From a virus, in IMG/VR virus record IMGVR_UViG_3300038330_000020: DNA of 41,749 nt; one strand, written 5' to 3'. Shown in pieces: positions 1 through 31,393 of this stretch. The position numbers and the translations under genes are program-made. Numbering within the stretch: position 1 is the first letter of the stretch; each line of letters begins with the position of its first letter. Under the pieces are notes generated by a model that was not told where the DNA came from, ran no database searches, and saw only the letters and a program-made list of their open reading frames with translations.

Positions 1-127
1 GAAACCGGGCCTATTGGGGATTGTAAATTTGAGATAAGGGCGCTGAGTAATGACATCCGCGAACTTCAAAAAACTCGGCAAAAGGTGAAGCAAGAGCTGA
101 GATCATTACAAGCGAAGAAAAAGAAGA
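1..127. repeat. Terminal direct repeat, left copy (identical to 41623..41749)
   Basis: Letter-for-letter identity of 1-127 with 41623-41749. A small ORF starting at 41599 continues in frame to a stop at 130-132. Confidence 0.95.
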
Positions 128-144
128 AATGAGCAAGCCCGCCG

Positions 145-312
145 ATGAAGGTTTTTAATGATGATAATTTCAAGAGTGGTCAGTTTTTATTTCGTGATTG
201 CGAGCATGTTCGATCGCTTTGGATATGCGAGCACTGCGTCAAGGTAGAGATTGAACGGCTTAAAAAAGAAATTGCCGACCTAAAGATTAAGCTAGGGTAC
301 GTGAACGCATAA
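145..312 (+). CDS. hypothetical small protein (55 aa), ends LGYVNA
   Basis: ATG at 145 and TAA at 310-312, below the ORF-track size cutoff. The last 20 nt duplicate the end of the ORF at 41432..41602. The stop overlaps the next ATG (TAATG). Confidence 0.4.
   Translation: MKVFNDDNFKSGQFLFRDCEHVRSLWICEHCVKVEIERLKKEIADLKIKLGYVNA
291..310. repeat. 20-bp boundary direct repeat GCTAGGGTACGTGAACGCAT (partner 41581..41600)
   Basis: Exact 20-mer found twice, each time covering the last codons of an ORF. Confidence 0.9.
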
Positions 313-443
313 TGACAGGCTTGGCACGCGTAGCGAAGTATTACGGTGGTATTGTCATCAACGGGCAGCGCTTTGTTTGGGACTACAAAAGAGGCAAGCC
401 CGTGCCGGTTCCTAAAAAGAAAGTTAAGAAGGCGAAGCGATGA
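312..443 (+). CDS. hypothetical small basic protein (43 aa)
   Basis: ATG at 312 overlaps the upstream stop. Its TGA at 441-443 overlaps the next ATG at 440 (ATGA coupling). The C-terminus is lysine-rich. Confidence 0.35.
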   Translation: MTGLARVAKYYGGIVINGQRFVWDYKRGKPVPVPKKKVKKAKR

Positions 444-469
444 CCCGACCCGCCGAAATAATCAAGTTT
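440..469. repeat. 30-bp boundary direct repeat ATGACCCGACCCGCCGAAATAATCAAGTTT (partner 676..705)
   Basis: Exact 30-mer at the start codons of two adjacent ORFs. Both proteins begin MTRPAEIIKF. Confidence 0.95.
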
Positions 470-679
470 GTTCGAGCTGAGTTAAAGAAACGCGGGTTTG
501 ACGTGCGCGTGACTTGCACCGCGGCGCAATGGCCCGGCGTGTATTTTGTAACGGTTTGGTTTATGTACGCTTGGGCCGGCGTTGTGTGGAGTGACGAAAC
601 TTTTCCTACTCAATCCATAAACTTGCTTGAAAATTCCTTGAACCGTTTTATTGCGCGAATATGGGATGATGCAGCATGA
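440..679 (+). CDS. hypothetical protein (79 aa), repeat-flanked cassette ORF
   Basis: ORF-track ORF whose first 10 codons are identical to the portal gene start. Its stop overlaps the portal ATG (ATGA). Confidence 0.55.
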   Translation: MTRPAEIIKFVRAELKKRGFDVRVTCTAAQWPGVYFVTVWFMYAWAGVVWSDETFPTQSINLLENSLNRFIARIWDDAA

Positions 680-705
680 CCCGACCCGCCGAAATAATCA
701 AGTTT
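676..705. repeat. 30-bp boundary direct repeat, second copy (partner 440..469)
   Basis: Exact identity to 440-469. Confidence 0.95.
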
Positions 706-2331
706 CATGCAACGCTGAAAGGCCGGCGCTACAACTTTGACAACACCGCGCAGGAAATTATCGATCATATCGATCCGCATCACCACGATGTGACCACGGA
801 ACGCAGCCCAGGCGAGCGCAAGAACGAAAGACAATTTGACGGGACCGCGCTGTATGCGTCACAGATATTCGCCGATTTCTACCAAGGGAGTGTTTTTAAT
901 CAGGGGACAAAATGGTTCTCTATCCGCCACCGGGACAACACCATAAACGAGAAGCCAGAGAACGCCACTTGGTTAAACGATACCCGCGACATCGTGTTAC
1001 AGCACATGCGCAACTTCTACGGCCCCGGTGGCCAAGCAATCAACTCGTGGGCGCTATTTGGCAACGGCCCGGTGCTTATCGAGGAAGTACCGGCGCGGAA
1101 GGAGTATCAGTCGCGGCTGAAATACACGTCAATTCCCTGGGGTCAATATGTAATGTGTGAGGGCGAGGACGGGAAGATCGATCAGTTTATCAGGGAATTG
1201 AAACTCCCGGCTAACCAACTCGTGAAGATGTTCGGGGAGAAATGCAGTGAGGATGTACGTAAGGCGAGTGAGAAAGACCCGCTCAAAGAATTTTGTATCC
1301 TGCATTCGATATTACCGCGCGATTTTCAGGCTTATAGCAAGAGCGCAATTAAGACGAGCAAAGAATATGATTGGGCTAGTTGCTGGGTTGAAGTAGAGAA
1401 AAAGAACTTACTCAAGGAGTCAGGCTACCGTAAATTCCCTGTAGCCGTGGCCCGATATAAACAAATCAGCGGCGAGGTGTATGCCCGAGGCTTAGGTGAA
1501 GTGGCGTTGAGCGATGCCAAGACATCGAACAAGATGCGCGAGCTAGAGTTATTGTGGGGCGGGCGCCAGTTAGACCCGCCTCAGCTCATACGCCGCGGCT
1601 CAATCATCAACGGCATTCTCAACATGCAGGCCAAGGGTAAAACCTTTGTGACCGACATCAACAACGCGGTGAAGCCGTTGATTGAACGGAGCGACCTGCC
1701 AAGCTTCGAGCATCTACACGAAGCGGTTCAACGCCAAGTGATGAGGGTCTTTCATGTCGATGAAATCCTAAACCTGCTCAGTCACGAATCACCGCAGCTC
1801 ACGGCCTTTGAAGTCAACGCGCGCTTAACATTATTACAACAAATTTTAGGGCCTATCTTCGGGCAAAATGATGTGGACTTTTTTGCGGTAACGATAGACG
1901 TGACGCTAGACAACCTCGCACACATGAATCTACTGGAACAGGCGCCGGACGACATAGCCATGTCAGGCGATGAGGACGCGCTTAATTTTGTCTATGAAGG
2001 GCCGTTAGCCAGGGCACAGCGCAATCAAGAGCTAGTCAACATTCAACAGAGCATAGCCGACGTGACAGGCATCCAGCCGTTCTATCCCGAAGTCGTCAAG
2101 CTGGTTGATTGGGAGAAGCTCACACGGCGTGCCTGGGAGATCCGCGGCACCAACGATCTACTTGTGAGTGAGGCGGATTACTTAAAGGCCGTGAACGAAT
2201 TGATTGCGCAGGCCAACGCGGAAAAAGCGGCGCAACTCATTGGCGGCGGCGCGCAGGCACTAGGGCAAGTGGCGCCGTTTATCAAGGCGACCCGCGAAGG
2301 CGCGACACCGGGCGGACAGTTGGCGGCATGA
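676..2331 (+). CDS. portal (head-to-tail connector) protein, podovirus/T7 gp8-like
   Basis: 551 aa and the first large gene after the terminase on the circular map, followed by scaffold and capsid genes. The N-terminal region (FDGTALYASQ...GTKWFSIRH) resembles head-tail connector family proteins. Confidence 0.75.
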   Translation: MTRPAEIIKFHATLKGRRYNFDNTAQEIIDHIDPHHHDVTTERSPGERKNERQFDGTALYASQIFADFYQGSVFNQGTKWFSIRHRDNTINEKPENATWLNDTRDIVLQHMRNFYGPGGQAINSWALFGNGPVLIEEVPARKEYQSRLKYTSIPWGQYVMCEGEDGKIDQFIRELKLPANQLVKMFGEKCSEDVRKASEKDPLKEFCILHSILPRDFQAYSKSAIKTSKEYDWASCWVEVEKKNLLKESGYRKFPVAVARYKQISGEVYARGLGEVALSDAKTSNKMRELELLWGGRQLDPPQLIRRGSIINGILNMQAKGKTFVTDINNAVKPLIERSDLPSFEHLHEAVQRQVMRVFHVDEILNLLSHESPQLTAFEVNARLTLLQQILGPIFGQNDVDFFAVTIDVTLDNLAHMNLLEQAPDDIAMSGDEDALNFVYEGPLARAQRNQELVNIQQSIADVTGIQPFYPEVVKLVDWEKLTRRAWEIRGTNDLLVSEADYLKAVNELIAQANAEKAAQLIGGGAQALGQVAPFIKATREGATPGGQLAA

Positions 2332-2540
2332 CATCAACAGAGATAATTGAAACAGTGAGAGCGTTAAGGGCCAAGTATGGCGAAACGCCGACACAGGTGA
2401 CGGTGAATAGTAAAGATTGGAATACGCTACGTGAGTCATGTCCTGCGCATTACGCCGCCGCGCCCTTTGAGAGCTTCAACGTGTTTTTGGGCTTGCGCGT
2501 GATTCTTGATGACAGCGTGACAACGCCACAATTTAAATAA
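2328..2540 (+). CDS. hypothetical protein
   Basis: 70-aa ORF with ATGA overlap to the portal stop, in the head module. Confidence 0.5.
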   Translation: MTSTEIIETVRALRAKYGETPTQVTVNSKDWNTLRESCPAHYAAAPFESFNVFLGLRVILDDSVTTPQFK

Positions 2541-2786
2541 ATGACCAAGCCTAAACACCCCCGACCGCGGTACGTACAGACCGATGAGAAATGGAACACG
2601 ATCGTTTCACATATTAGAGAGGCGATACCCGTTAACGGCGTTATTTGGAACTGGTTGACGATGGAACGATTAGAAAACAATTTGGGCAAGGATGAGCACG
2701 ACCGCGGCTTGATTGAAGGCGCAAGGCGCTTTGCTTGCACGCTTCAAGAAATGTCAGCCACTAAAGACGAACCGGAGACAGAGTAA
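2541..2786 (+). CDS. hypothetical protein
   Basis: 81-aa ORF abutting the upstream stop, in the head module. Confidence 0.5.
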   Translation: MTKPKHPRPRYVQTDEKWNTIVSHIREAIPVNGVIWNWLTMERLENNLGKDEHDRGLIEGARRFACTLQEMSATKDEPETE

Positions 2787-3665
2787 ATGCCACTACCTGA
2801 AGAACACGCGGCGCTTTTGCCGGAGGATATTCGCTCCGACCCGACGTTACAGAATTACAACGACTTCGGGAGCATGGCTAAAAGTTTTATTGAAACTAAG
2901 GCCATGGTAGGCCGATCGATTCAGTTACCGGCCAAGGACGGCAAGCCCGAAGACTTCGACAAATGGGCAGGCGAAACCGGCGCAAAGTTAAAGGACTACG
3001 GTTACACCGTTGCTAAACCTAACGAACCACCGCCGGAAAAGCCCGACGCCTATGATTTTAAGGTGGAAGGGTTTGACCCGCAGGCGATCAAATCTGACAT
3101 TGTCGCCAACTCGTTTAAAGAGTTTGCGCATGGGGAAAAGTTGAGCCAAGCCCAGGCAAACAGGTTTGTTGAGTGGTGGGCCAAGAAGGGCGCGCCGGCA
3201 GTCATGGCGAAGATGGACGAAGCGCAGGCGGCTCAACAAATTGAAATGATCGAGCAGCCCGAGCAGCGGGATAAAATCCTCGGCGAAGTATTCCAAGGCG
3301 CGCACAAGCAGGCATTGGAGCTGCGCGACAATACGATCACGACACTTAAGGCCGAGATACCTGAGCTTGAGGACTTCTTGACCGGCACCGCACCCTACGG
3401 CGCGCCATGGATGACGAACCGCGATCACCCGGCCATGGTGAAGCTATTAAACTTCGTTGGCGAAATGAAGCAGCAAGATTTCGGCGGGCACGTTACCGGC
3501 TTGACCGCGGCTGATACCATGGACAGCGTTGACGACGAGATCAGCAAGCTGCGCGCCGAATCGAACGCAACCAGCGACCAGCGTGAACGGAACCGTATTG
3601 GCGACAAGATCACGCAGCTTTATCTTAAAAAGACCGCGTTGATGAAGATGAAAAAGGCAAGCTGA
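2787..3665 (+). CDS. putative scaffolding (capsid assembly) protein
   Basis: 292 aa, lying between portal and capsid genes. It is charged and helical, and the N-terminal LPEDIRSDPTLQNY..SMAKSFIET motif is typical of phage scaffold proteins. Confidence 0.6.
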   Translation: MPLPEEHAALLPEDIRSDPTLQNYNDFGSMAKSFIETKAMVGRSIQLPAKDGKPEDFDKWAGETGAKLKDYGYTVAKPNEPPPEKPDAYDFKVEGFDPQAIKSDIVANSFKEFAHGEKLSQAQANRFVEWWAKKGAPAVMAKMDEAQAAQQIEMIEQPEQRDKILGEVFQGAHKQALELRDNTITTLKAEIPELEDFLTGTAPYGAPWMTNRDHPAMVKLLNFVGEMKQQDFGGHVTGLTAADTMDSVDDEISKLRAESNATSDQRERNRIGDKITQLYLKKTALMKMKKAS

Positions 3666-3698
3666 GTGCCGCTTCTATGGCACATTAAGGCAATAGGA

Positions 3699-3851
3699 AT
3701 GCCGATGGCAAAGAAAAAAGAAGTAATAGATTTGACCGACAAGGCCGTGGTTGAGCGATTTGAGAAAATAGAGTCACGACTAGACAGCTTAGAGCGCGGA
3801 CAATTACCAAATAAAAAGGAGAAAAATGACGAAGAAGAAAAAAAAGAATAA
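3699..3851 (+). CDS. hypothetical small charged coiled-coil protein
   Basis: In-frame ATG at 3699 inside track ORF 3666..3851. The sequence is K/E-rich. The start codon is uncertain. Confidence 0.3.
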   Translation: MPMAKKKEVIDLTDKAVVERFEKIESRLDSLERGQLPNKKEKNDEEEKKE

Positions 3852-4009
3852 GCCGAAATATTGAGCCTTACTGGAAGCGCATCACGGGCCAGCGGTGTGC
3901 TTCCTGAAACGCTTAAACGCGATTCACTCCCGACTATCCGGCACGTGGACCGGGAGTTAATCAAAGTGCCATCTAGCCGATGTAAAGGCTAGGTCGGACC
4001 CGCCTTAGC

Positions 4010-4072
4010 GGACTATCCACCGAAAGAGTGCGGCGCTCATCGCCGTTTATCAATCATTTCGGAGGATAGTCC
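4010..4072 (+). promoter_or_regulatory. Long hairpin sequestering the capsid-gene Shine-Dalgarno
   Basis: GGACTATCC-A-CCGAAA (4010-4025) is the reverse complement of TTTCGG-A-GGATAGTCC (4057-4072). The 3' arm contains the SD GGAGGA (4061-4066) and ends 1 nt before the GTG at 4074. Confidence 0.6.
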
Positions 4073-4073
4073 A

Positions 4074-4946
4074 GTGGCATTTACAATAGAACAACATCAC
4101 GTCATCAAGTACGCCGACGACGTACAGATGGCGTATCAGCAAGACGCATCGCGCATGCGTAATTGTGTTGAGCTGAAAACCGGCATCGTCGGTAAATCCT
4201 TTTCTACTAACGACATCGACATCGTTGAGGCCGTCACTAAAGACAGCCGTCACGAGCAGCATAGTCATCAAGACCCCGAGCACAAGGTGCGATGGGGCAA
4301 TCTCACCTATTATTACAACTCGATCATGATGGACCGCGACGACGACGCGAGAGTGTTGGCCGATCCAAAGAACAGCTATGTGATGACCAACGCCGCCAGT
4401 CTTGGCCGGCGCGCCGATCGCACCATCATTAGCGCGCTACTCGGCACCGCGGTTACTCTCGAAGATCGCACCGGAACGCAGGCGTTACCTACCGCGCAGA
4501 AAGTGACCGGCTCAACCTCGGCGCTAACCAAAGCGAAGATTCTAACGGCTAAACGCCTGTTGGATGCAGCTGAAGTGCCGGACGGTGACAGGTACTTCGC
4601 TATCAGCGCGCAGGGACTTGAGGACATGCTGGCAATTACGGAAGTCATCTCAAGCGATTACAACACCGTCAAGGCGCTCGTTGACGGGCAAATCAACACT
4701 TGGCTTGGTTTCAAGTGGGTGAGAACCGAACTGTTACCCATCGGCGTTGTGACCACATTAGTCCGTCAGGCTATCGCGTGGCACAAGTCGGCGCTGGTAT
4801 TTGGCGAAACCACGGCCAGCCAATATACCCGCATCAAGCAGAGAACAGACATGCACGATGCATGGGAGACTTACGCGGCGATCGACATCGGCGCGGTGCG
4901 CAAGCGGGACAAAGGTGTGGTTGAGGTTCATTACCTCGAAACTTAA
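4074..4946 (+). CDS. major capsid protein
   Basis: 290 aa, positioned after the scaffold gene, with a strong SD and a GTG start. Sequence pattern (SRMRN..ELKTG..GKSF; DPKNSYV..AASLGRRADRTIISALLG) resembles podovirus major capsid proteins. Confidence 0.7.
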   Translation: MAFTIEQHHVIKYADDVQMAYQQDASRMRNCVELKTGIVGKSFSTNDIDIVEAVTKDSRHEQHSHQDPEHKVRWGNLTYYYNSIMMDRDDDARVLADPKNSYVMTNAASLGRRADRTIISALLGTAVTLEDRTGTQALPTAQKVTGSTSALTKAKILTAKRLLDAAEVPDGDRYFAISAQGLEDMLAITEVISSDYNTVKALVDGQINTWLGFKWVRTELLPIGVVTTLVRQAIAWHKSALVFGETTASQYTRIKQRTDMHDAWETYAAIDIGAVRKRDKGVVEVHYLET

Positions 4947-4987
4947 TTAACGGGCTAGGATTTTAACCGAAACGGAGTAAACAAATC

Positions 4988-5470
4988 ATGGCAGTTGAAG
5001 CACTTAAAAGTAGACAAATCATAGCGCGCGACGCAGGCGTGCTTGTGCCTTCCTATCTTGGCAAGGGCCAGTGTTTTTTCCTTCGCTCTAGCCCGCCGGT
5101 TGCCGGCAGCTACGGCAGCGGCGACGCTAACAGCACGATCCATTTAGTGACCGTGCCGCCGGGGAAGTTCATGTTAATCGGTCCTCTTTCATTCGTGGCG
5201 CATTCCGCCTTCGGCACCGCGCGCACGATGGACATCGGATGGGCGGCTTACACCAACGAGGACGGGACGGCGGTGGGCGCCGACGAGGACGGCATCCATA
5301 GTGCCGCCGACGTGGCCGCGGCCGGCGCATTCGTGCCGCTCGATGAGCTGGGCGTTAGTCGGATGAAGCTATTCGACAGCAGAAACGGCGTTGACATTCT
5401 CGCCAAGATCGAAGCGGCAGCGCTATCGACAGGTGAGACCATCGACGCAATTTTCTGTTTTCAAGAATAA
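4988..5470 (+). CDS. hypothetical virion-associated protein (possible capsid decoration or accessory)
   Basis: 160-aa ORF directly after the capsid gene. No recognisable motif. Confidence 0.4.
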   Translation: MAVEALKSRQIIARDAGVLVPSYLGKGQCFFLRSSPPVAGSYGSGDANSTIHLVTVPPGKFMLIGPLSFVAHSAFGTARTMDIGWAAYTNEDGTAVGADEDGIHSAADVAAAGAFVPLDELGVSRMKLFDSRNGVDILAKIEAAALSTGETIDAIFCFQE

Positions 5471-6061
5471 ATGTGGGAATACCGAGGAATAAAGGGCGGG
5501 GGTGATTCCCCGTCCTACCTTGGCAAATTCAAGGGGAATCTCATCATCATCGGCGGCGCGCGTAATGTCTGGGTCGATTACATGACGCTTACGCACGGCT
5601 TAGGGTTCGACGGCTCAGTCATGGCGGTGAACGACGTTGGGTGCTTCTTTGACCGACCGCTCAACCATTGGGTGTCAATGCACGCTAATTTTCTAGCTCA
5701 TTGGGTGGCGCTCAGAAAAGGTCATTCGATGCTCGGGCATGAGTGCTTGACGCATACCCGCGAGTCTTACCCAGGGATTCGCGTGGCGTGGGAGATTAGT
5801 CCATACGGCTGGACTAGCGGCATGTTTGCGGCACAGGTGGGCGTCGCCCTCGGGTACGACAAGGTCGTTCTTTGCGGCTTGCCACAGGACGGAACGGGCC
5901 GGTTCTTTGACCCGCCATGGATGCCCGGCGGGGAGCATGACGACGGCAATTCCAAGAAGGCATTTAGGAACATCGTTGAGCAGACACCAGAAATGAAGGC
6001 GCGAGTCAGGTCCATGAGCGGGTGGACCAAGGAGTTATTTGGTGAGCCTGGAACAAGCTGA
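5471..6061 (+). CDS. Rossmann-like protein, possibly DUF115/MptE(Maf)-like transferase
   Basis: LIIIGGARNVW near the N-terminus and SGMFAAQVGVALGYDKVVLCGLP later resemble the MptE/DUF115 layout. The assignment is weak. Confidence 0.3.
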   Translation: MWEYRGIKGGGDSPSYLGKFKGNLIIIGGARNVWVDYMTLTHGLGFDGSVMAVNDVGCFFDRPLNHWVSMHANFLAHWVALRKGHSMLGHECLTHTRESYPGIRVAWEISPYGWTSGMFAAQVGVALGYDKVVLCGLPQDGTGRFFDPPWMPGGEHDDGNSKKAFRNIVEQTPEMKARVRSMSGWTKELFGEPGTS

Positions 6062-6590
6062 GCACGACAAATACGCGCGCATATGGCAGCACGCGGACTA
6101 CCGCAAGAACTCGCCTGGTGAGCGGCTTGTACCTTATTTTGTAAAGCATGTGCCAGCCGAGAAAGGCGACTCGATTATAGACATCGGTTGCGGCACCGGG
6201 AGAGCAGGGGCGGAACTGCAACGCCAGGGGTTTAAGGTTTGTCTTTACGATCACGTTCACGCGGTGGAGGTTGGGTTGCCGTTTATCTTGGGCAACCTGT
6301 GGCTAACACCGCCAATCTTCGGCCAGTTCGACTGGTTTTATTGCTGCGATGTGATGGAACACATACCGACCGAAAAGGTTGATTTAACCCTCGACAATCT
6401 TGCGCAGCTCGCAACCAAGGGCGGGTTTTTTCAAATCGCTTTGTTTCCCGATGAATGGTACGGCGAACAACTCCACATGACAGTCAAGAGTCAAGGCTGG
6501 TGGGTTGATAAGTTGCTTGCGCGTTGGCCGAAGGTAACAACCGACACACCGGAAAAGGGCCGCTTTGTGGCGACCGTGAGGCCGGCGTGA
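6039..6590 (+). CDS. class I SAM-dependent methyltransferase
   Basis: Motif I IIDIGCGTGRAG, then KVCLYD, then FYCCDVMEHIP. The start is uncertain because it overlaps the upstream gene by 23 nt. Confidence 0.8.
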   Translation: MVSLEQAEHDKYARIWQHADYRKNSPGERLVPYFVKHVPAEKGDSIIDIGCGTGRAGAELQRQGFKVCLYDHVHAVEVGLPFILGNLWLTPPIFGQFDWFYCCDVMEHIPTEKVDLTLDNLAQLATKGGFFQIALFPDEWYGEQLHMTVKSQGWWVDKLLARWPKVTTDTPEKGRFVATVRPA

Positions 6591-7138
6591 CAAAAGTTGT
6601 CTGTTTACTCACCGGCGACAAATACCCGCAGGATTATATCATCAAGCTTTACCGCGGCTTGCAGAAACACACTACGCAACCATTTGATTTCGAGGTAATC
6701 ACGGAAACCAAATACCCCGGCTGGTGGGGGAAAATGGAACAATTCCCGCCAAAAGAAAGAATCATCTTGCTCGACGTGGATTTAGTCATCACCGGCAATG
6801 TGGATTTTCTATTTGAGTATCAAGGGCAGTTTTGTTGCTGGCGCGATCCATGGGCGGATGGGCTCAACGGTTCGGTTCATTCGATCGCGCCGGGATTCGG
6901 TGAATCATTCCGCAAGGTGTTTGACTCCGACCCAGACGCATTTATGCGGCGCTATTACAGCGATCAGGAATTTTTGAGGGATTACACTCTGCCGGATTAT
7001 TGGCCTAGCGATTTAATCAAATCCTACAAGGCGGACAGCTTAGAGGATGGCCCGCGTGATTCTCGCATCGTCGTATTCCACGGCAAGCCTAAACCGCATG
7101 AGATCAAAACCGGATGGGTAGCGGAGGCGTGGCAGTAA
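6587..7138 (+). CDS. putative GT-A fold glycosyltransferase (GT8-like, DxD motif)
   Basis: The GTG at 6587 overlaps the upstream TGA (GTGA). VVCLLTGDKY... and ILLDVDLVITGNVDFLF (DxD) are typical of nucleotide-sugar transferases. Confidence 0.5.
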   Translation: MTKVVCLLTGDKYPQDYIIKLYRGLQKHTTQPFDFEVITETKYPGWWGKMEQFPPKERIILLDVDLVITGNVDFLFEYQGQFCCWRDPWADGLNGSVHSIAPGFGESFRKVFDSDPDAFMRRYYSDQEFLRDYTLPDYWPSDLIKSYKADSLEDGPRDSRIVVFHGKPKPHEIKTGWVAEAWQ

Positions 7139-7743
7139 TGGAAAACCAAAGCGACATAGACTTAGCCAACACCGCGCTTAACCTAGTGGGCTCCGATCGC
7201 ATCGTGTCGCTGGACAACACGGTCAACAGCAAGGTGGTTCAATCGGTCAATCAATTCTTATCACTGGCGAAACAGGAAACCTTGCGCGCGCGTGATTGGA
7301 ACCGCGCAAGAGGCCGGGCGACCCTGGCAGCACTGGACGCCAGCCTAAGCCTAGGCGAGTGGTCGCAAGCGTATCGCTTGCCGCCGGATTGTCTTTGTAT
7401 GCGCCGGTTTATCGGGACTTGTGACGCGGAGAGATTCGCCGCCTACAACGTGGAGATCGACGAGGACGACAAGCAGATCCTTTTCACCAACTGCGGCACG
7501 AACAAGATCGTTTACACGCGCAACATCGTCGACGTTAATCGATGGGACTCGCTGATGTTTCGCGCCGCGGTTCAACTACTGGCGTCTTATCTAGTCGGCC
7601 CGCTCATTCGTGACTTCAAAATGCAACAAATGAAAACCCTGGAATTTAAGGACGCCTTTGAAGAAGCGATAGGGACGAACGAGGGCGAGGGCGGGCCGGA
7701 TCAGGTTTACGACAGTACGCTAGTCAGTGTCAGGCATTGGTGA
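7138..7743 (+). CDS. putative tail tubular protein A / adaptor (T7 gp11 position)
   Basis: The ATG at 7138 overlaps the upstream TAA. It is about 200 aa and lies immediately upstream of the large gp12-like gene. N-terminal motif is DLANTALNLVGSDRIVSLD. Confidence 0.5.
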   Translation: MENQSDIDLANTALNLVGSDRIVSLDNTVNSKVVQSVNQFLSLAKQETLRARDWNRARGRATLAALDASLSLGEWSQAYRLPPDCLCMRRFIGTCDAERFAAYNVEIDEDDKQILFTNCGTNKIVYTRNIVDVNRWDSLMFRAAVQLLASYLVGPLIRDFKMQQMKTLEFKDAFEEAIGTNEGEGGPDQVYDSTLVSVRHW

Positions 7744-7904
7744 GTCAGGCGGCAAGGTGACGAAGCTAAGAGGCTCAAATTTATTATCGTCATTAAGCAC
7801 ATACACACGGCGTTCAGTAGCGAGATAAAGTCGCCCTTTGAATTCAACCATGGTGAGTATATTGAAATGTGCGTTTGCGTATTCCATGAGGCGTTTATAA
7901 CACA

Positions 7905-10670
7905 GTGAGCGGCAACGTAACAATCATTCATCACAGCCTCAACGCAGGCGAAGTCTCACCGCGCGTGGTGGGCCGCCAGGACCAAAACAAATATATGGCG
8001 GCGTGCGAGACGATGCTTAACTGGACGCCGCTCGTAGTCGGCGGCGCCGGCCTCAGACCCGGCTCGCTGTTCGTTACCACGACCAAGGACGTAGCTAATC
8101 ATCCTATCAAGAGGATGCGCCCGTTCGTGGCGCACCGGCACGCCGCCTATACGATGGAGATAGGCCACCAGTACATCAGGTTTTTTTTTAACGGATCGCC
8201 AGTTGAATCTAGTCCCGGCACCCCGCTTGAACTGTCTACACCGTACCAAGACACCGACTTAGCCGAACTCTTTCCAGTCCAATCCGTAGACGTTTGCTAT
8301 TTGCTGCACGGCCTTTACGCGCCGCGGAAGATCACCCGGCTTGCCGAGGACGATTTCACCATAACCACGGTCAATTTTAGTCCGCCGGCAACCATGGAGG
8401 ATGAGCCAACCGGCGCGGCTTTGCTGATGGGCACGTTGACACCCGGCGCAACCACAGGCAGCGGCATTGCCTTTGAAGCGGAGAACGGCGGATTCCTCGC
8501 CGCCGACCTGGGCCGGATAATCGTGGCCGGCGGTTCGCGAGCCCTTATCACCGGCGTGACCGATGCCGATACGGTGCAGGTCGATATTATCGATGACTTT
8601 CCCGACACCGACCCGATAGCCGAGGATGATTGGCGCTTAGTCCTATCGCCACAGACTACACTCGACATCACCAACGAGCGCACCGAGGTAGGCCAGCCGG
8701 TGACATTGACCGCGGCTATTCCCGCATTCCGCGCCACCGACGCGGGCAAATGGATTGCGATCTACGGCGGGTTGCTGCAAATCATTGTTGTTGAGGATTC
8801 ATCGAATGTGTCGGCGCTTATCCGCTCACGGCTAGACGACATTACCACCGACAACCCCGACCCGTCCCGGGCGTGGACTTTGGAGGTTGCGGCATGGTCT
8901 AGCGCGCTTGGATTCCCGACCTGTGGTTGTTTTTTCCAAGAACGATTTTGGCTATGCAAGGACTTGACGATAAATGGATCCGTCACCGGTGATTTCGAGA
9001 ACTTTGCCAAAGGCGGAGACGACGATTCAGCCATCGCGCGCACGATCAGCGACGACGACGTTGACGCTATCGTATGGATCAAAGGCGATCAGGATTTAAA
9101 GATCGGCACCTTCAGCGGCGTTTATCAGGCATCACCCACCACCCAGAGCGGCGCCCTCACTCCAACCTCGTTCAAGGTAGTTCCCATCGATGCTAACGGC
9201 GGGGCGCGCGTGCAGCCTTTGCGCGTCTCGCCCGTCCTCATTTACGTCGACGTCAACAAGCGCGAGCTGCGCCAACTCGCTTACGATTTCGCCAGCGACA
9301 AATTCAACTCACAACATTTATTCCGCATGGCGGAACATTTGATCGACGGCTATTTCATCAACGAAATGGCTTACGCGGCTAGTCCCGACTCAACCGTGTA
9401 TGTAGTACGCAATGACGGCGTGCTGTTGGCGCTAGTCTACGAGCAGAACGAAAGCGTGGTTGCTTGGTCCCGCATCGTAACTGACGGCTTAATAAAATCT
9501 TGCTGCGTTATCCCGCGTCCTGAAACCGGCAAAGACTGGGTGTGGTTTATCGTTGAGCGCACCGGAGGCACCTATGTCGAATATCTGGAACCGGATCACA
9601 TCGACACTGGCAGAGAATGGAACGAGCTACGCACAGATTCGGCTGTTGTTGCTGCCCCTGATACTGACGGCGTTGTTGGTGGGCTTGGGCATCTCGAAGG
9701 AAAAACAGTATGGGCCATCGCAGACGGCGCTCTCTACAACACAGGCCGAGACGAGAACAACCAAATAATCAGCACCGCAGTAGTCGAAGGCGGGGAGATA
9801 ACCCTAGAACAGCTTGACCCGCCAACCCCTATTTTCCGCGTTGAAGTGGGCTTGCCGATTGATGCGCGCTTAGTGCCGATCGAGCCGGCGTTACCTGCCG
9901 AGGCGGGCGGGCCGATGATTGCGCGAGGTTATGCCGAGATCGGTATCCGTATCCGGCGCACCCTCGGCCTTAGCATGCGCGCTTGGCGCGTGGGTTTCAG
10001 CGAGCCGGGCGATGACGATTTAGTCGGCGAGCAGCTTGTTTACCGAAAACCTTATCACGTCATGGACGCGCCGGTGCCCCTGCAACAGGGAAAAAAATGT
10101 ATCACAAATCTCGGCTATGATCCTTTTGCGCGTATCGAGATCCGCCAGCAGTTACCCTTTCCCGCCGAGGTGCTTAACGTCGTTGGCAAGTTGCATATTG
10201 GCGATCGTTGGGACTGTGAAACCTACAACGACCCGCAGGTGTTTGTCCGCATCGGATTTTCATCCAAGGAATGTGACGTGGCTTGCCCTCTCGGCGGGTT
10301 TATCGAAGTCACTTACAACGGCGCATTGATCGCAGGCGGGCCGGCGCTGCGCGTGTCGCTCGATAGCGGGCCGTTTGCTTATACCGGGCTTGTAGCCCTT
10401 TACGACCCAGCAACTCAGGTTATAGCATTGGTTCTTTACGACGGCGAAGCACTCTCACCACTCCCCGAACCGCTCACCACGATAGCGCAGATCTTAGTTC
10501 CCGGCGACGTGTTACGCCTTCAAGCCGATAGCCTCGACCCTGAAATATACAGAGTCTTTGTCAACGGCGCGCCGATTATCGAGGAGACCGTAACCGAGGA
10601 AGCGTTAGACCCGGACAATGAATGTCACGGCTTTGTGCAGGTGCCAGACGTGGAGGCGTTAGCGGCATGA
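7905..10670 (+). CDS. putative tail tubular protein B / nozzle (T7 gp12 position) with C-terminal extension
   Basis: 921 aa with a GTG start. The N-terminal pattern LNAGEVSPRVVGRQDQNKY...LRPGSLFV is seen in podovirus tail tube or nozzle proteins, and the synteny fits. Confidence 0.55.
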   Translation: MSGNVTIIHHSLNAGEVSPRVVGRQDQNKYMAACETMLNWTPLVVGGAGLRPGSLFVTTTKDVANHPIKRMRPFVAHRHAAYTMEIGHQYIRFFFNGSPVESSPGTPLELSTPYQDTDLAELFPVQSVDVCYLLHGLYAPRKITRLAEDDFTITTVNFSPPATMEDEPTGAALLMGTLTPGATTGSGIAFEAENGGFLAADLGRIIVAGGSRALITGVTDADTVQVDIIDDFPDTDPIAEDDWRLVLSPQTTLDITNERTEVGQPVTLTAAIPAFRATDAGKWIAIYGGLLQIIVVEDSSNVSALIRSRLDDITTDNPDPSRAWTLEVAAWSSALGFPTCGCFFQERFWLCKDLTINGSVTGDFENFAKGGDDDSAIARTISDDDVDAIVWIKGDQDLKIGTFSGVYQASPTTQSGALTPTSFKVVPIDANGGARVQPLRVSPVLIYVDVNKRELRQLAYDFASDKFNSQHLFRMAEHLIDGYFINEMAYAASPDSTVYVVRNDGVLLALVYEQNESVVAWSRIVTDGLIKSCCVIPRPETGKDWVWFIVERTGGTYVEYLEPDHIDTGREWNELRTDSAVVAAPDTDGVVGGLGHLEGKTVWAIADGALYNTGRDENNQIISTAVVEGGEITLEQLDPPTPIFRVEVGLPIDARLVPIEPALPAEAGGPMIARGYAEIGIRIRRTLGLSMRAWRVGFSEPGDDDLVGEQLVYRKPYHVMDAPVPLQQGKKCITNLGYDPFARIEIRQQLPFPAEVLNVVGKLHIGDRWDCETYNDPQVFVRIGFSSKECDVACPLGGFIEVTYNGALIAGGPALRVSLDSGPFAYTGLVALYDPATQVIALVLYDGEALSPLPEPLTTIAQILVPGDVLRLQADSLDPEIYRVFVNGAPIIEETVTEEALDPDNECHGFVQVPDVEALAA

Positions 10671-11965
10671 GCCCTGTAATTCTCCCTAGCGGCTGGACGG
10701 GTTTTAATTCAGGGTGCTGCGTCGACACAACCGAGCGCGGTCAACAACTCATCGCGCAGGAAGTGGCGTTTAGTCAATTCCCTACGATCAACGGCGGGCG
10801 GCGCACTTCATGGGCTTACGTATCGCCGACCGGCGACTGCATAACTTTAGTCGGTGATGGGAATTGCGCGCTCGGGAATATGGCGTACAAGCAAACCGCT
10901 TTGCCGCCAAACCCCGACTGTTGCCAGCTCAACAGATTTCTCGGCGGCAACCCGACTGTGTTTGACCATCCCGCATTGATAGACCCCGACCCTTTCGCGT
11001 CCGCCGTGAATACGTCCGTTGGCGCAGCGGATGAGCCTATGTATTCGTTTTCATCCGGCGGCGGCGTGGTTGAAATATCGGCCTACTACCCGAACAGCAA
11101 CACGCACGTAGTTTATAATCATGCGTTTAACGCCGTGCAGCCCGACGCAATCGCCAAAAAAGGCAACCGATTCTATGCCTATTTAGGAACCTCGGCGCAA
11201 AACGGCTTTGCACGACATATCGTAGTTTATGACGCGCAAGCCGGCGGTGATTTCTTAGAAGATTGGGACAGCCTAGAGAACTTTCGCGTTATCACCATGA
11301 ACGCGACGGAAAATTATCTTGTTTGTTTCTGCACCGACCTGACTCAGACCATTCTATCGATTAAAAAACTTTCCTTGGTTGACGGTTCTATAGCGGAATC
11401 AATCGACATCACTCACATTAACCTGCATCGATCCTTTGCCGTCAGTGATGACCTTGTTTATCTGCTCACAAACACCGCAATGTATTATCTATCCGGCACT
11501 GACCTGGTGTTTGTCGGACGAGCGCCGGGGCTCACGCTGAGTGCCTTTGGCGGCAATGCGTTTTTTTCCGGCGGGGTTTTTTACTGGGGGCAAGCAGGTT
11601 TCGGCGATGCCAACGCGGATATTTATAAAATCGCTATTCAATGCCCCGAGGGCGGGCCGCTCATCGCGTCCATCTCCACAGGCGCAACCGTGGCGGCGGG
11701 CTCGGCAATCAATGTCACTTGGTCCGGGATTTTAGACCCGACCGCGGGCGATCGAATAGAACTCCGACCGGCGCCGCCCGCCGGTGACTTGGGTTTCGTC
11801 GGCGCCGCGTTGGCGACTCTCAACACCGGCGGGCCGTTATCGGATGGGACCTTGCCGTTCACTATTCCGGCGCTCACCACACCGGGCAATTACATTTTCA
11901 ATTTAACGAGGACAGACGCGGGCGTGATTCTCATCGCCACGTCGAATGTGTTCACGGTGACATGA
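10667..11965 (+). CDS. hypothetical tail-associated protein (Cys-rich N-terminus, Ig-like C-terminus)
   Basis: The ATG at 10667 overlaps the upstream TGA (ATGA). 432 aa, in the tail module. Confidence 0.5.
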   Translation: MSPVILPSGWTGFNSGCCVDTTERGQQLIAQEVAFSQFPTINGGRRTSWAYVSPTGDCITLVGDGNCALGNMAYKQTALPPNPDCCQLNRFLGGNPTVFDHPALIDPDPFASAVNTSVGAADEPMYSFSSGGGVVEISAYYPNSNTHVVYNHAFNAVQPDAIAKKGNRFYAYLGTSAQNGFARHIVVYDAQAGGDFLEDWDSLENFRVITMNATENYLVCFCTDLTQTILSIKKLSLVDGSIAESIDITHINLHRSFAVSDDLVYLLTNTAMYYLSGTDLVFVGRAPGLTLSAFGGNAFFSGGVFYWGQAGFGDANADIYKIAIQCPEGGPLIASISTGATVAAGSAINVTWSGILDPTAGDRIELRPAPPAGDLGFVGAALATLNTGGPLSDGTLPFTIPALTTPGNYIFNLTRTDAGVILIATSNVFTVT

Positions 11966-12234
11966 GGCACGAAACCAAGGAAAAGTTTGAAGCCATGGCG
12001 GTGGACTTCGGCTTGCCGGTGCACTGGCTCAACTTCGCCGGCGGCTGGCTGATGGGTTGTAATGCCTGCACTACAGCGGGCCGCATCGTGCGGCTTTACG
12101 AGCAAGGCAAGATCAGCCGCGACGAGCACAAGAAACTATTTCTAGCCGTGGCGAATGCCAAGACTCAGAACGACAACACGGCGCTTTTTGAGCTTAGGGG
12201 GAAGTTGGAGGAATTACGCAAAGCATCTCTGTAA
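11962..12234 (+). CDS. hypothetical protein
   Basis: 90-aa ORF with ATGA coupling to the upstream gene. Confidence 0.5.
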   Translation: MRHETKEKFEAMAVDFGLPVHWLNFAGGWLMGCNACTTAGRIVRLYEQGKISRDEHKKLFLAVANAKTQNDNTALFELRGKLEELRKASL

Positions 12235-12290
12235 TCCCTTTTCGCGCGCGTCACTGTCCGCTCATCAAGCCAGACGTGAGTGAGGAATTC

Positions 12291-12647
12291 ATGGCTCGGG
12301 CAGTAGCCCACGAGCGCATCGCGTTTGCCCGTTCAGTTTGTTTGAACGGCGACCCGATCGGCGCGGGCGGGATTACCATGCACGACGACATCGGGGAAAC
12401 GTGGTCTTTGTTTTCCCCTACGGTGTTGCAATTTCCCAAAGCACTTTTCAAGGCGTGCAAGGCGGGCATCGCGGGCGCGGTGAAAGAGTTTAACCCGCAG
12501 GTGATTCTATCGTTCGTTCATAAGGACGATCTAGTCGCGCAGCGTTTTATTGAACGGCTCGGCTATAAGCAAAGCGAGCAACGTTTATACATTTACGGCG
12601 CAGACGGCGGCGATTGGTGGGCGTCGGCAGTAAAGAAGGAGAATTAA
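12291..12647 (+). CDS. hypothetical protein, possibly GNAT-fold (T7 gp13 position)
   Basis: The ATG at 12291 is preceded by GAGGA. The C-terminal ...AQRFIERLGYK resembles the GNAT C-terminal motif. The alternative start is the GTG at 12276. Confidence 0.35.
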   Translation: MARAVAHERIAFARSVCLNGDPIGAGGITMHDDIGETWSLFSPTVLQFPKALFKACKAGIAGAVKEFNPQVILSFVHKDDLVAQRFIERLGYKQSEQRLYIYGADGGDWWASAVKKEN

Positions 12648-12649
12648 GT

Positions 12650-13081
12650 ATGCCATGGGCACTTATAGCAATGGCGGCGATTAAGGCCGTCGGTTCGATC
12701 CTTCAAGGCGTAGGCGAAATGAAGGCGCACAAACAGAACGCGCTAAACGCCGAGGCCGAGGGCGAGCAGGCCGTGGCGACAAGCGGAGCAGAAGCAATGC
12801 GGATACGTCGCCAAGTAGCAGGCGAACAAGCCTCATTGATTGCGGGCGCAGGCGCGCAGGGCACGACCTTTGCCGGTTCGCCGATGGAAGTCTACACAGA
12901 GAACGCCTTGCAAGGTGAAACCATGGCGCAAGACCGAATCTACGGCGGGCGGCTAGTGAATCGCAGCAAGAGAATGGAGGCGCAAATGTCACGGCGTAAA
13001 GCATCCGGCGCGATGCTAGGCGGGATATTCGGCGCGCTTGGCGCCGGTGCGTCGGCATGGGCAGGAAGTAGCGGTAACTAA
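12650..13081 (+). CDS. putative internal virion protein (T7 gp14-like architecture)
   Basis: The ATG at 12650 follows AAGGAG. It has a hydrophobic N-terminus, an A/Q/G-rich helical core and a Gly/Ala-rich hydrophobic C-terminus. Confidence 0.45.
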   Translation: MPWALIAMAAIKAVGSILQGVGEMKAHKQNALNAEAEGEQAVATSGAEAMRIRRQVAGEQASLIAGAGAQGTTFAGSPMEVYTENALQGETMAQDRIYGGRLVNRSKRMEAQMSRRKASGAMLGGIFGALGAGASAWAGSSGN

Positions 13082-13082
13082 A

Positions 13083-13796
13083 ATGATTCAATCAATCTAC
13101 ACTCCCGACAACTACACCGGCAACGGCACGTTGGACACATTCGCGTTTACCTTTCGCATCCTTGTTAAGGGCGATCTTGTCGCCATGACCCGGGACACGA
13201 ACGACGTTGAAACGACGCTCGAACTCAACAGCGATTACACGATCAGTGACGCCGACGTGAACACCGCGGACGGCGGCGAGGTGGTGTTGACCGATCCTTT
13301 GCCGACAGGAACCAAAATCTTTTTAATCAGGCGCACGGCGCAGACGCAGCTTAACAACATTGAGGAAGGATCACCTTTCCCGGCGGCAGTAGTCACTAAG
13401 GAATTTGATCGACTGACAATGATGATTCAGGATTTGCAATACCAAATCCGCCAATCTTTGAAGTTTTCGCCGACGAGCGAGATCGAAGATTCAAACTTAC
13501 CTGAGCCCGAGGCCGGCGCGCTCTTACAGTGGAACAGCGACGAGGACGGATTGCAAAACGTCCTGGCTTCATCCCTCGGCCTCACTCACACGGTTATCAC
13601 GCAAGCGATCGCGGCGGGCGCATTTCAAGCCGTGGTTACTCACAACCTAGCCAGCGCAAGCGCGAAAGTAATCGGCTTTAGCGCGAATTGGGGCACTGGA
13701 TTCTCTATCAACTCACAGGATGCCGATACTATTACGCTTGACTTGACCGTGGAGGCGCCAACCGGCGCCGAGATCACGACAGAGGTAGCAATATAA
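13083..13796 (+). CDS. tail fibre adaptor protein with T7 gp17-type N-terminal (tail-attachment) domain
   Basis: N-terminal pattern YTGNGTLDTFAFTFRIL...DYTI...GGEVVLTDPLPTGTKIFLIRRT..Q...F.AAVVTKEFDRLTMMIQDLQ matches the conserved phage T7 tail-fibre N-terminal domain. At only 237 aa it is likely an adaptor rather than a full fibre. Confidence 0.7.
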   Translation: MIQSIYTPDNYTGNGTLDTFAFTFRILVKGDLVAMTRDTNDVETTLELNSDYTISDADVNTADGGEVVLTDPLPTGTKIFLIRRTAQTQLNNIEEGSPFPAAVVTKEFDRLTMMIQDLQYQIRQSLKFSPTSEIEDSNLPEPEAGALLQWNSDEDGLQNVLASSLGLTHTVITQAIAAGAFQAVVTHNLASASAKVIGFSANWGTGFSINSQDADTITLDLTVEAPTGAEITTEVAI

Positions 13797-18292: not shown

Positions 18293-19548
18293 TGAGAAAA
18301 TTGCTACTCGCTTTATTCCTTGCCTTAGCATTCCCCGCGCAGGCATGGGCCGCGGCGATCGCGCACACCTTCGTAGAACAGAACTCAAGCCAGAGCACCA
18401 CAAGCGCGAGTTACGGTGACGTGACCGGCGCGACGATTACAAGCGGCAATTTCACCGCTGGCAAGAAGTACCTGATTTGGGTTACGGCGCATGTCAACCC
18501 GCCGGCCAACTCCTTAGTCGGTTATCAAGTAATTCACGGCTCGACGGCCTTTGCCGAATCGGAATTTCTAACCCGATCCGACGAGCAGAACGGGCGGGCC
18601 TATCTATGGTTCACCGTGTGGGAGGCGGTTTCCTCCGAGGGGATCACTTTCCAGATTAAGAGCGACGGCACGTTGACTAACGCCGTGGACCAAGTTGCTA
18701 TTTTCGCGATGAATCTGTCTGATGACTTGGTTGAAAACACCGACTGGTGCTTTAACGAGCGCTCCAATAATGACGCTCTTTCCACTTCGCCAGTCGGCGG
18801 CGGCGCCTGCACGATCACACCGGCGGGTGCATCAGATTGGCTTGTCGCTTCGTATGCACAGGTAGACCTAGCAAACGCCACAAACAACTTAATAACCGCG
18901 CTTGTCCGCTCCGGCGAGGCCAGCACTTCGCTACCGCAAGGCGTGTTTCTGGCGGCGACAGCAACCGACCAAGAATTGATGGCTTTGTCCCGCGTCTTTG
19001 CCTTGACCGGCGTATCAAACACATTCACCGAGCAATCATCCGCGGCGGCATCGGCTCATACCCGATTACACTCGGGGTTGTTCATGTTGAACTTGGATAA
19101 ATTTGCCGGGCATTCAAGCGCGTACACGGAAGCCGATGCAAATCTCGGCACGAGCGCATTCGGTAATCAACTGCAAACAATCGGAATAACCCCCGCGGCC
19201 ATTGGCGATGTTTGGGTGGGCGCCTATTGGGGCTTTGACCAAAACAACGCCAACCGCAACGCGCGCTTTCGCGTGCAGATTGACGGTGCTGACGTGCCGA
19301 CCGGACAAACGACGGACCTTCTTCTTTTCCGCACCTTTTCCGACCAGGGTGAAACACCTATGCACCTTAGTACCATGGTGACGAACATGACCGCGGCGGC
19401 GCACACGATAGACCTTGACGCAGCGGCGGACGCGACCACCGGCACGCCAGCGGCGCAGCAGGCAACTCTATGGGCGGTGACAATGGAGTTACCCGGCGGC
19501 GCGCCGCCACCACCCGCGGGCGGCGTCTTTCATAGGAGAATTCAATAA
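18292..19548 (+). CDS. hypothetical secreted or fibre-associated protein (two tandem beta-sandwich-like halves)
   Basis: The ATG at 18292 overlaps the upstream TAA by 1 nt. N-terminus is MRKLLLALFLALAFPAQAWA/AAI. 418 aa. Confidence 0.6.
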   Translation: MRKLLLALFLALAFPAQAWAAAIAHTFVEQNSSQSTTSASYGDVTGATITSGNFTAGKKYLIWVTAHVNPPANSLVGYQVIHGSTAFAESEFLTRSDEQNGRAYLWFTVWEAVSSEGITFQIKSDGTLTNAVDQVAIFAMNLSDDLVENTDWCFNERSNNDALSTSPVGGGACTITPAGASDWLVASYAQVDLANATNNLITALVRSGEASTSLPQGVFLAATATDQELMALSRVFALTGVSNTFTEQSSAAASAHTRLHSGLFMLNLDKFAGHSSAYTEADANLGTSAFGNQLQTIGITPAAIGDVWVGAYWGFDQNNANRNARFRVQIDGADVPTGQTTDLLLFRTFSDQGETPMHLSTMVTNMTAAAHTIDLDAAADATTGTPAAQQATLWAVTMELPGGAPPPPAGGVFHRRIQ

Positions 19549-23467: not shown

Positions 23468-23760
23468 CGACGCTGATTTTATTGATCGCCTTGACGTTCA
23501 CCTGGGTCGACACGTCCGACAACGAGGAAGGATTCGTTATCGAGAAATCAATCGGCAACTGCAACGGGTTTGAACCCTACAGCTTTCACGGTGCCGGCAT
23601 ACAGAAAGTTGTGGACACCGCCGTCGGCGTGCCGGGCGACTGTTACCGGGTGGGCGCGTTCAACGATAGCGGCATAGCGTACAGCAACACGGCGCAGATA
23701 GCGCAACCCCCGCCACCACCGCCATGCGTTATCAAGGGAAAGAGTAAAAAGTGTCACTAA
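23464..23760 (+). CDS. small fibronectin-type-III-like protein with poly-Pro / Cys C-terminal tail
   Basis: LTFTWVDTSDNEEGFVIEKS...CYRVGAFNDSGIAYSN is the bacterial FN3 signature. ATGA coupling to the upstream gene. Confidence 0.55.
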   Translation: MTTLILLIALTFTWVDTSDNEEGFVIEKSIGNCNGFEPYSFHGAGIQKVVDTAVGVPGDCYRVGAFNDSGIAYSNTAQIAQPPPPPPCVIKGKSKKCH

Positions 23761-23773
23761 GGAAAGAATCACG

Positions 23774-24061: not shown

Positions 24062-24073
24062 GGAGGTAAGTAA

Positions 24074-24490: not shown

Positions 24491-24620
24491 AGGGGGTGAT
24501 CCGTTCAATGATGTGCGTGCTGTCGATAATTGCGGCGTTACTATGTCATGCCCCGGAATATTTCACTAGCCGGGGTGACGCATCCGGCAAAAACACGTTG
24601 AGGATTTAATTTAAAACTTT

Positions 24621-31382: not shown

Positions 31383-31393
31383 AAAAATTCCCC

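Follow-up and report, generated by a model that had tools for sequence, protein, structure and literature searches.

The window analysed here is a 41,749-nt stretch of viral DNA (IMG/VR record IMGVR_UViG_3300038330_000020). In it a 30-bp exact direct repeat, R30, lies on the start codons of two consecutive genes, a 79-aa open reading frame (ORF79) and the portal gene directly behind it. The 30-mer belongs to the portal gene, and ORF79 carries the copy. R30 is probably the scar of an unequal crossover, illegitimate or guided by microhomology, between collinear, closely related phages that differed in the small genes carried between a conserved gene, ORF56, and the portal gene. This ORF56-portal slot is an insertion hotspot.

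The 30-mer ATGACCCGACCCGCCGAAATAATCAAGTTT occurs on the + strand at 440-469 (copy 1) and 676-705 (copy 2), 30/30 identical, and allowing as many as three mismatches reveals no further occurrence. The match, for which the chance expectation is 0, was not reproduced by any of 100 shuffles that preserve dinucleotide composition. Identity stops sharply on both sides: copy 1 is preceded by GCG and followed by GTT, and copy 2 by AGC and CAT, respectively. Copy 1 opens ORF79 (440..679) and copy 2 opens the 551-aa portal ORF (676..2331); both proteins begin with MTRPAEIIKF, and the ORF79 stop codon TGA (677-679) overlaps the portal ATG (676-678). Removal of one repeat unit (236 bp) would return the stop codon of ORF43, the gene upstream of ORF79, onto the portal ATG and yield GCGATGACCC. 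An earlier, sequence-only reading of this DNA had called the repeat non-random, placed it on the start codons at 440 and 676, and noted that recombination between the copies would excise exactly one ORF and restore the ORF43-to-portal junction; on these points it is borne out. Genome-wide, only three exact direct repeats of at least 20 nt have a spacing below 1.5 kb, and all of them lie on gene termini and bracket small ORFs.

The first 127 nt of the window (1-127) are identical to its last (41623-41749), so the assembly closes into a circle whose true length is 41,622 bp; we take the 127-nt overlap to be the k-mer size of the assembler. Both R30 junctions are 100% identical in two assemblies from the Joint Genome Institute (JGI; 3300038471 and 3300038413) and in at least four Logan assemblies (SRR12951175, SRR12951184, SRR12951188 and SRR12951189), and the arrangement is therefore not an assembly artefact.

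Which copy is native can be decided from the portal protein. This T7-type head-to-tail connector matches PF12236 (Head-tail_con) with 262 bits (cut-off 27; E 9e-78) and phrog_332 with E 1e-74. Its residues 6-492 correspond to profile positions 3-484 of 489, so the match begins within the repeat-encoded peptide. The portal starts aligned in nine relatives follow the pattern M[TSN][RK][PA].EI.., and their first 30 nt, which vary at synonymous sites, are 16-26/30 identical to those of the window. A second R30 copy is absent from every relative examined, each of which has a single portal 5' end. The 30-mer is therefore native to the portal gene.

ORF79 is a chimera of the first ten codons of the portal gene and the body of a conserved small phage protein. 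A word-indexed protein search with ORF79 returned only ORF79 itself, and an exhaustive HMMER scan of 1.84 billion representatives gave one true homolog (P0062, E 4.8e-11), which is ORF82 of the relative contig L015. There the gene order is the terminase end, a 142-aa gene, the ORF56 homolog (ending in ..GLGYVNA), ORF82, and then the portal start GCATGAGCCGC; ORF82 thus occupies the same slot. It is 43% identical to ORF79; the homology starts at ORF79 residue 6 and continues to the C-terminus, and the BLOSUM local score is 161, compared with 24.7+-4.5 for shuffled sequences. Both proteins end in ..WD[DE]AA with a stop codon that overlaps the portal ATG (GCATGA), and the sharing of this junction with L015 argues that it is old. 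The native N-terminus of ORF82, MRDLMDKKEIKEW, differs from that of ORF79. Among the 44 best-conserved codons of the pair, 11 are identical, 12 differ only synonymously and 21 change the amino acid, which indicates an old divergence under which the protein sequence was preserved. On these comparisons, ORF79 is a genuine small phage gene rather than a decayed portal copy, and in the window its first ten codons alone have been replaced, by the portal copy.

The body of ORF79 shows no significant similarity to the portal gene. Beyond the repeat, DNA comparisons gave z scores of -1.1, -0.5 and +0.7 against shuffled controls; at the protein level 84 of 1000 shuffles equalled the observed score, or 897 of 1000 when the whole body was used, and the similarity between L015 ORF82 and portal N-termini is not significant. 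The sequence-only reading had allowed for a diverged partial duplication of the portal 5' end, a view that does not survive these results and the membership of ORF79 in a different family. Its picture of ORF79 as a unit bounded by the repeat also has to be revised, as the right-hand junction is old and only the first ten codons are new. The opposite idea, that ORF79 is an ancient fixed gene, fits its long residence in the slot but not its left flank, which is new.

The AlphaFold2 model of ORF79 (pLDDT 87, pTM 0.77) is confident and has a predicted alpha-beta3-alpha fold whose first helix (residues 3-17) takes in the borrowed residues. A Foldseek search of this model against PDB and BFVD gave nothing at E <0.01, only weak dsRBD- or HPF-like alpha-beta3-alpha resemblances. 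As a separate observation, residues 25-57 (512-610; TAAQWPGVYFVTVWF...SDETF) resemble the repeat unit TPTEAQGPGVYPVTVRVTD...DEETF of two giant tandem-repeat proteins, P0063 and P0064, with E-values (2e-8 and 1.5e-4) that are summed over 10 and 4 repeats. This resemblance may be due to chance, since the true homolog P0062 is without most of the motif.

The slot was compared in 12 genomes, the window and 11 relatives (L001-L004, L010-L013, L015, L028 and L029), among which L015 is a close relative of L010. The portals of the nine relatives whose starts were aligned are 65-81% identical to that of the window at the protein level. A blastn search of positions 1-2400 against 50,697 GenBank phages gave no matches; a query of IMG/VR with the portal protein and the 20-mer ATGACCCGACCCGCCGAAAT gave a single relative contig, and a scan of JGI metagenomes yielded three short relatives. 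Neither Pfam nor PHROGs gave a match for any slot ORF, and Rfam gave none, introns included, over the entire window.

In all 11 relatives a homolog of ORF56 follows the large terminase gene and precedes the portal gene. In seven of the 12 genomes (L001, L002, L003, L012, L013, L028 and L029) the slot is empty and the ORF56 homolog abuts the portal gene through a junction of the form TAATGAC, TAAATGA or TAGTGA. The slot contains unrelated ORFs in L004 (one, Cys-rich), L011 (one of 81 aa, with ATGAC on its flanks) and L010 (two small ones); L015 carries the ORF79 homolog. The sequence-only reading had raised the question whether different ORFs occupy the same pre-portal position in relatives, and they do.

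In the window, the slot contains four ORFs on the + strand, geneX, ORF55, ORF43 and ORF79. Its left border is ORF56 (41432..41602), a small conserved gene. The 51-aa geneX crosses the circular junction (41599..132, with its 3' part at 1..132) and begins with an ATGA overlap on the ORF56 stop codon. It is followed by ORF55 (145..312; 39% GC), whose last six codons copy the ORF56 C-terminus, and by ORF43 (312..443), whose stop codon overlaps the ORF79 start (ATGA) and whose own first 5 nt, ATGAC, are also those of the portal gene. The slot genes are linked by ATGA overlaps and, at 39-50% GC, are AT-richer than the genome (54.5% GC). The first three are ORFans: when they were searched together with ORF84, a gene described below, as a concatenated query against 5.8 billion proteins, ORF84 alone gave homologs. 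Exact look-ups of the portal, ORF43 and ORF56 proteins found identical slot content in every contig and no slot variant without a cassette, although contigs cannot reveal rare variants.

Several further observations concern the borders of this region. Contigs assembled separately from low-coverage samples (L008, L019 and L007) start exactly at 413 (one JGI and one Logan contig) and at 41604, the latter position being 4 nt after copy 1 of the 20-bp repeat described below; these ends could be due to gaps in coverage or to strain variation concealed at the edges of the slot. Between the terminase gene and ORF56 the window contains a 27-aa hydrophobic mini-ORF (41346-41429; MEILDVLRIIFWCLVALLALIKTIDVLR), unlike several relatives; the hydrophobic mini-ORF of L010 is a different one, 30 aa long, and lies within the slot. 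Directly downstream of the portal gene, L013 (7650-8186) and L014 (4387-4923) carry an Endonuclease_7 (PF02945) gene where the window carries a 70-aa ORF, which makes the 3' border of the portal gene variable as well.

R30 (site 1) is not the only scar of this kind in the genome. At site 3, within the same slot, the exact 20-mer GCTAGGGTACGTGAACGCAT (R20) occurs at 41581-41600 and 291-310 on the + strand and brackets geneX and ORF55 (332 bp on the circle). Copy 1 is the 3' end of ORF56, which encodes ..GLGYVNA. The ORF56 homologs of L010 and L015 likewise end in GLGYVNA; judged from these homologs, the peptide is native to ORF56 and was copied onto the C-terminus of ORF55.

The segment 291..316, in which R20 copy 2 is followed by AATGAC (GCTAGGGTACGTGAACGCATAATGAC / GCATAATGAC), can be compared with the junction GGCTAATGACCCG of the insert-free relative L001. 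By this comparison it appears to be a fossil, an intact empty-slot junction of the L001 type between the ORF56 stop and the portal start, so that ORF43 would start on a former portal start codon. A more decayed candidate is found at 129..145, where a 17-nt putative portal-start relic, ATGAGCAAGCCCGCCGA, lies directly after geneX with an ATGA overlap and reads MSKPADEGF before a stop codon. It is 13/17 identical to the portal starts of the window, L001, L004, L011 and L012, a level that none of the 168 other ATGA sites in the genome reaches, and the ATG of ORF55 (145) falls inside it. With o for the ORF56 3' end and p for the portal 5' end, the slot can be written as ORF56[o]-geneX-[p',17 nt]ORF55 body-[o,20 nt+TAATG+AC]ORF43 body-[p,30 nt]ORF79 body-[p]portal.

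Site 2 lies outside the slot and closely parallels R30. The exact 22-mer TGAGCGAAACGCCGCGAACGAA occurs on the + strand at 38534 and 38785, preceded by A and G (38533 and 38784), respectively. Copy 1 (38533..38555, ATG and 20 nt) starts ORF84 (38533..38787), and copy 2 (38784..38806, GTG and 20 nt) starts a VRR-NUC nuclease gene (38784..39125; PF08774, E 5.7e-5; phrog_93, E 9.5e-11) that has homologs in L011 and L013 and for which this GTG is the only usable start. Both proteins begin with MSETPRT. ORF84 belongs to a family with the motif ..ELLPC..C..RPAVAAALRE; its homolog P0066 in contig L016 is 63% identical (E 8e-16), and it also resembles the N-terminal part of a 237-aa protein of L013. 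The homologs begin with ATG directly followed by AAG GAC GAA GCG (MKDEAEEK). Between this ATG and AAG, the window has 18 extra nt, AGCGAAACGCCGCGAACG, identical to the VRR-NUC 5' end, and the only microhomology at the joint is GAA. Compared with its homologs, ORF84 is thus chimeric, with a borrowed VRR-NUC 5' end on the body of its own family.

The two sites have one more feature in common. A 13-mer, GGCGAAGCGATGA, has its only two occurrences in the window at the left junctions of site 1 (431-443) and of site 2 (38524-38536), where it precedes or overlaps copy 1, and the proteins upstream of both sites end in AKR. In 42 kb some pairs of identical 13-mers are to be expected, but chance does not predict that such a pair would take up the same position at two scars.

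The region upstream of the VRR-NUC gene, near site 2, is a second variable slot: the window has ORF288 (37670-38536), which has a signal-peptide-like N-terminus and repeated G-rich motifs and matches no family, and L011, L012 and L013 hold unrelated genes at this position. In L016, P0066 is followed at 1143-1180 by ATGAATCTC (with an ATGA overlap), which matches the L013 VRR-NUC gene over its first 9 nt, and then by unrelated sequence. This may be another 5'-end relic, although it is too short to judge. The exact repeats of 19-24 nt in the closest relative, L010 (152-359, 1709-1731, 1883-1901 and 2146-2187), such as CTCGGGAACATAGGGGGAAAAATG and CTAAACATTAACCCGGGCGCAAC, were considered as the same phenomenon and rejected, since they are intergenic units resembling ribosome-binding sites or promoters and not copies of gene termini; they precede several small early genes on the minus strand.

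The crossover proposed for R30 would have involved two parents. Parent 1 would have had ORF43 abutting the portal gene, the ORF43 3' end running into the portal start and then CATGCAACG, and parent 2 would have had a gene of the ORF79 family with its own N-terminus, likewise abutting the portal gene. An exchange that left parent 1 30 nt into the portal gene and entered parent 2 about ten codons into the ORF79 gene, in frame, would keep the slot genes of parent 1 and gain ORF79. The incoming gene would then use the ribosome-binding context, start codon and first ten codons of the portal gene, and an intact portal gene would persist behind it, translated through the old ATGA stop/start overlap.

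In its general form, this process would depart from parent 1 at a point a few to 30 nt past the boundary of a conserved border gene and enter parent 2 upstream of its copy of that gene, in or beside an accessory gene, and the interval between the two crossover points would become duplicated. The outer edge of each repeat would be the gene boundary, where the upstream contexts of the parents diverge, and the inner edge would be the crossover point (between 469 and 470 for R30 copy 1). Selection would keep only those products that have a whole essential border gene and an in-frame incoming gene, and because of this filter the scars would lie on start and stop codons and on ATGA or GTGA overlaps. 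The homology at the joints would be minimal, GAA at site 2 and, by comparison with L015, possibly GAAATAA at site 1; homology-facilitated illegitimate recombination and template switching between co-replicating genomes would be equivalent descriptions. The same process could have produced the 22-nt ORF84/VRR-NUC repeat, the 20-nt ORF56/ORF55 repeat, the ATGAC start of ORF43 and the relic at 129-145, with the four small slot ORFs added one at a time.

Several points weigh against this explanation. Neither a genome with ORF43 directly on the portal gene nor one with an ORF79 more than 90% identical that retains the native N-terminus was found, which makes the event a reconstruction and not an observation. 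None of the three repeats contains a single mismatch, which requires very close parents, recent events or later homogenisation. The replaced N-terminus of ORF79 hardly differs in length from the native one and keeps its E-I..[FW] register, as would be expected of a homology-guided exchange or of gene conversion more than of a blind illegitimate joint. The geometry of the three repeats permits the precise loss of a cassette by repeat-mediated deletion, but there are no deletion variants among the assembled contigs, in which rare variants would be invisible. Finally, the shared 13-mer is not explained by a crossover of this type.

The main alternative is an intragenomic short-patch gene conversion. 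Here an ancestor with the order ORF43, ORF79 with its native start, and portal would have had the first ~30 nt of ORF79 overwritten from the portal 5' end 236 bp downstream, the conversion being seeded by GAAATAA in the E-I codons. This heptamer is common to the 5' DNA of L015 ORF82 and the portal 5' end, L015 has this E-I..W/F register in its native N-terminus (..KKEIKEW..), and the replaced segment differs by only about one codon in length; moreover, exact identity would need no two near-identical parents. However, no homology bounds such a tract to the left of the ATG, where GCG faces AGC and the upstream genes differ. Conversion also leaves site 2 unexplained, as 18 nt were added there rather than replaced, and it does not account for the fossil empty junction and the portal-start relic, in which junction fragments travel with the added genes. 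We therefore regard conversion as unlikely and prefer the crossover.

A bolder version of the crossover reading, which we put forward as speculation with a low chance of being right, is that start-codon capture is the regular way in which this lineage installs accessory genes. A new gene would sit just inside the 5' end of a resident gene, in many cases an essential one, and take over its ribosome-binding context and first 2-10 codons, and the resident gene would be pushed downstream and translated by stop/start coupling. The 20-30 bp repeats would then be kept as a precise excision switch, and GGCGAAGCGATGA would be part of a preferred entry site. If this were true, populations would always mix genomes with and without a cassette, a form of bet-hedging that resembles phase variation and needs no dedicated recombinase.

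We give still less credence to the proposal that selection keeps the 30-mer identical because both genes use it for translation initiation or regulation, be it as an unstructured start or as a site where a translational regulator binds. Such a role, also suggested by the sequence-only reading, is compatible with three facts: the 30-mer alone is predicted to be unstructured (minimum free energy 0 kcal/mol), both genes are translationally coupled to their upstream neighbours by ATGA overlaps, and start capture recurs at ORF43, ORF84 and ORF79. On the other hand, the predicted RNA structure is no better than that of shuffles at either copy (z -0.03 and +1.0) and, likewise, at site 2; Rfam gives no match; and the relatives have a single copy that varies at synonymous sites. 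The third repeat, moreover, lies at gene 3' ends rather than starts, and a recent scar suffices to account for the locus. The expression of ORF79 may well benefit from an unstructured, proven start region; this would explain the survival of the joint but not the origin of the repeat.

It is very improbable that ORF79 and one repeat form a mobile cassette that excises as a 236-bp circle and re-integrates at the 30-mer in the manner of Campbell, or that inserted with a long target-site duplication. Direct repeats around one ORF do have the geometry of an integrated circle, and the slot ORFs do differ among relatives. However, neither an integrase, a transposase or a homing nuclease nor inverted repeats (near 440-705) were found for the insert, the ORF79 homolog of L015 occupies the slot without a repeat, and the differing repeat lengths of the sites (5, 17, 20, 22 and 30 nt) suggest no fixed recognition site. 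Transposases are not known to make target duplications as long as 30 bp. A transposable element, whether an insertion sequence or a miniature inverted-repeat element, was rejected for want of inverted repeats near 440-705 and of a transposase and because of the variable repeat lengths, and a homing endonuclease gene, intron or intein because ORF79, ORF43, ORF55 and ORF84 match no such family and Rfam finds no intron in the window.

That the portal 5' end was partially duplicated in tandem and that ORF79 arose by divergence of the upstream copy is barely plausible: the first ten codons are common to both genes and there is a faint resemblance between AELKKRGFD and ATLKGRRYN, but the similarity beyond the repeat is at shuffle level in DNA and protein, a jump from 100% identity to random within one base is unlike the decay of duplicates, and the family of ORF79 is a separate one, with an alpha-beta3-alpha fold predicted for ORF79. 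Least credible of all is an assembly artefact, a chimeric join or collapsed strain variants, because, although the data are metagenomic and some low-coverage contigs end near the slot (413 and 41604), both junctions are identical in at least six assemblies from two independent pipelines (JGI and Logan) and the 30-nt repeat is far shorter than the 127-nt overlap.

The model of phage mosaicism through illegitimate recombination, and with it the concept of morons, comes from the work of Hendrix, Juhala and colleagues and is summarised in PMC3029335. The present locus agrees with that model in that novel joints lie at gene boundaries, accessory genes stand between conserved ones, and selection removes non-functional joints. 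Classical morons bring their own promoter and terminator. The added genes described here differ, as they appear from their sequence to be expressed via start-codon capture and ATGA translational coupling; a moron was rejected on the grounds that positions 1-1200 contain neither a sigma-70-like promoter (+ strand) nor a terminator-like site and that the genes are joined by ATGA overlaps.

The deletion frequency in T7 reportedly climbs steeply with the length of direct repeats, as found by Pierce, Kong and Masker in 1991. Exact direct repeats of 20-30 bp that are 200-330 bp apart, as found here, are a classical substrate for such deletion, and each event would remove one cassette; unlike in the T7 work, no deletion variant was seen in our material, which consists of assembled contigs only. 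Homology-facilitated illegitimate recombination is likewise known in principle. As in relaxed recombination at short homologies (De Paepe et al. 2014, PMC3945230), one side of each joint is anchored in a conserved gene (portal, VRR-NUC or ORF56) and the other has little or no homology. Unlike in relaxed phage-recombinase systems, the recombination-related genes of the window are a PD-(D/E)XK exonuclease gene (34768..35667) and the VRR-NUC nuclease gene, and no single-strand annealing recombinase was recognised in the window, including beside the exonuclease gene.

The nearest precedents are two mycobacteriophage cases described by Pope et al. 2011 (PMC3029335). In Island3, gene 68 encodes an 85-residue ORFan that is absent from Brujita and that ends in 18 residues (~50 bp) duplicating the C-terminal ones of the upstream gene. 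In LRRHood, genes 43-46 lie between 29-bp direct repeats that are single-copy in relatives, at the extreme 3' end of a gene. Both cases were ascribed to recombination with an unknown partner or to deletion (PMC3029335), within a framework of illegitimate recombination at gene boundaries followed by a selection filter, possibly aided by phage recombinases (PMC3029335; De Paepe et al. 2014, PMC3945230).

The likeness to these cases is close. A small ORFan or gene block absent from close relatives is bracketed by a direct repeat (29-50 bp in those phages) of one extreme end of the gene next to it; relatives have this repeat only once, as the native end of a conserved flanking gene (here portal and ORF56); and the bracketed ORF is chimeric, with a borrowed terminus and a body unrelated to the neighbour (here ORF79 and ORF84). 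The scar is thus of a kind already known in phages, the Island3/LRRHood kind, and the locus reveals no new kind of element or mechanism. Its particular points are that two of the three repeats are 5' ends (a start codon and 7-10 codons) captured by the upstream gene, that the native termini of the two captured genes can be demonstrated from homologs, and that a single 1-kb slot of a podovirus-like metagenomic genome contains several nested scars together with fossil junctions.

For annotation, the comparison carries a warning: identical N- or C-terminal peptides on adjacent phage ORFs mark recombination joints and not paralogy. The locus also illustrates how an incoming gene can be expressed immediately through the start of a resident gene, and how an essential gene survives the insertion. 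It preserves three exact repeats together with a decayed relic and a fossil empty junction, and homologs tell native from borrowed termini; it is an unusually legible record of small accessory genes accumulating at a phage hotspot.

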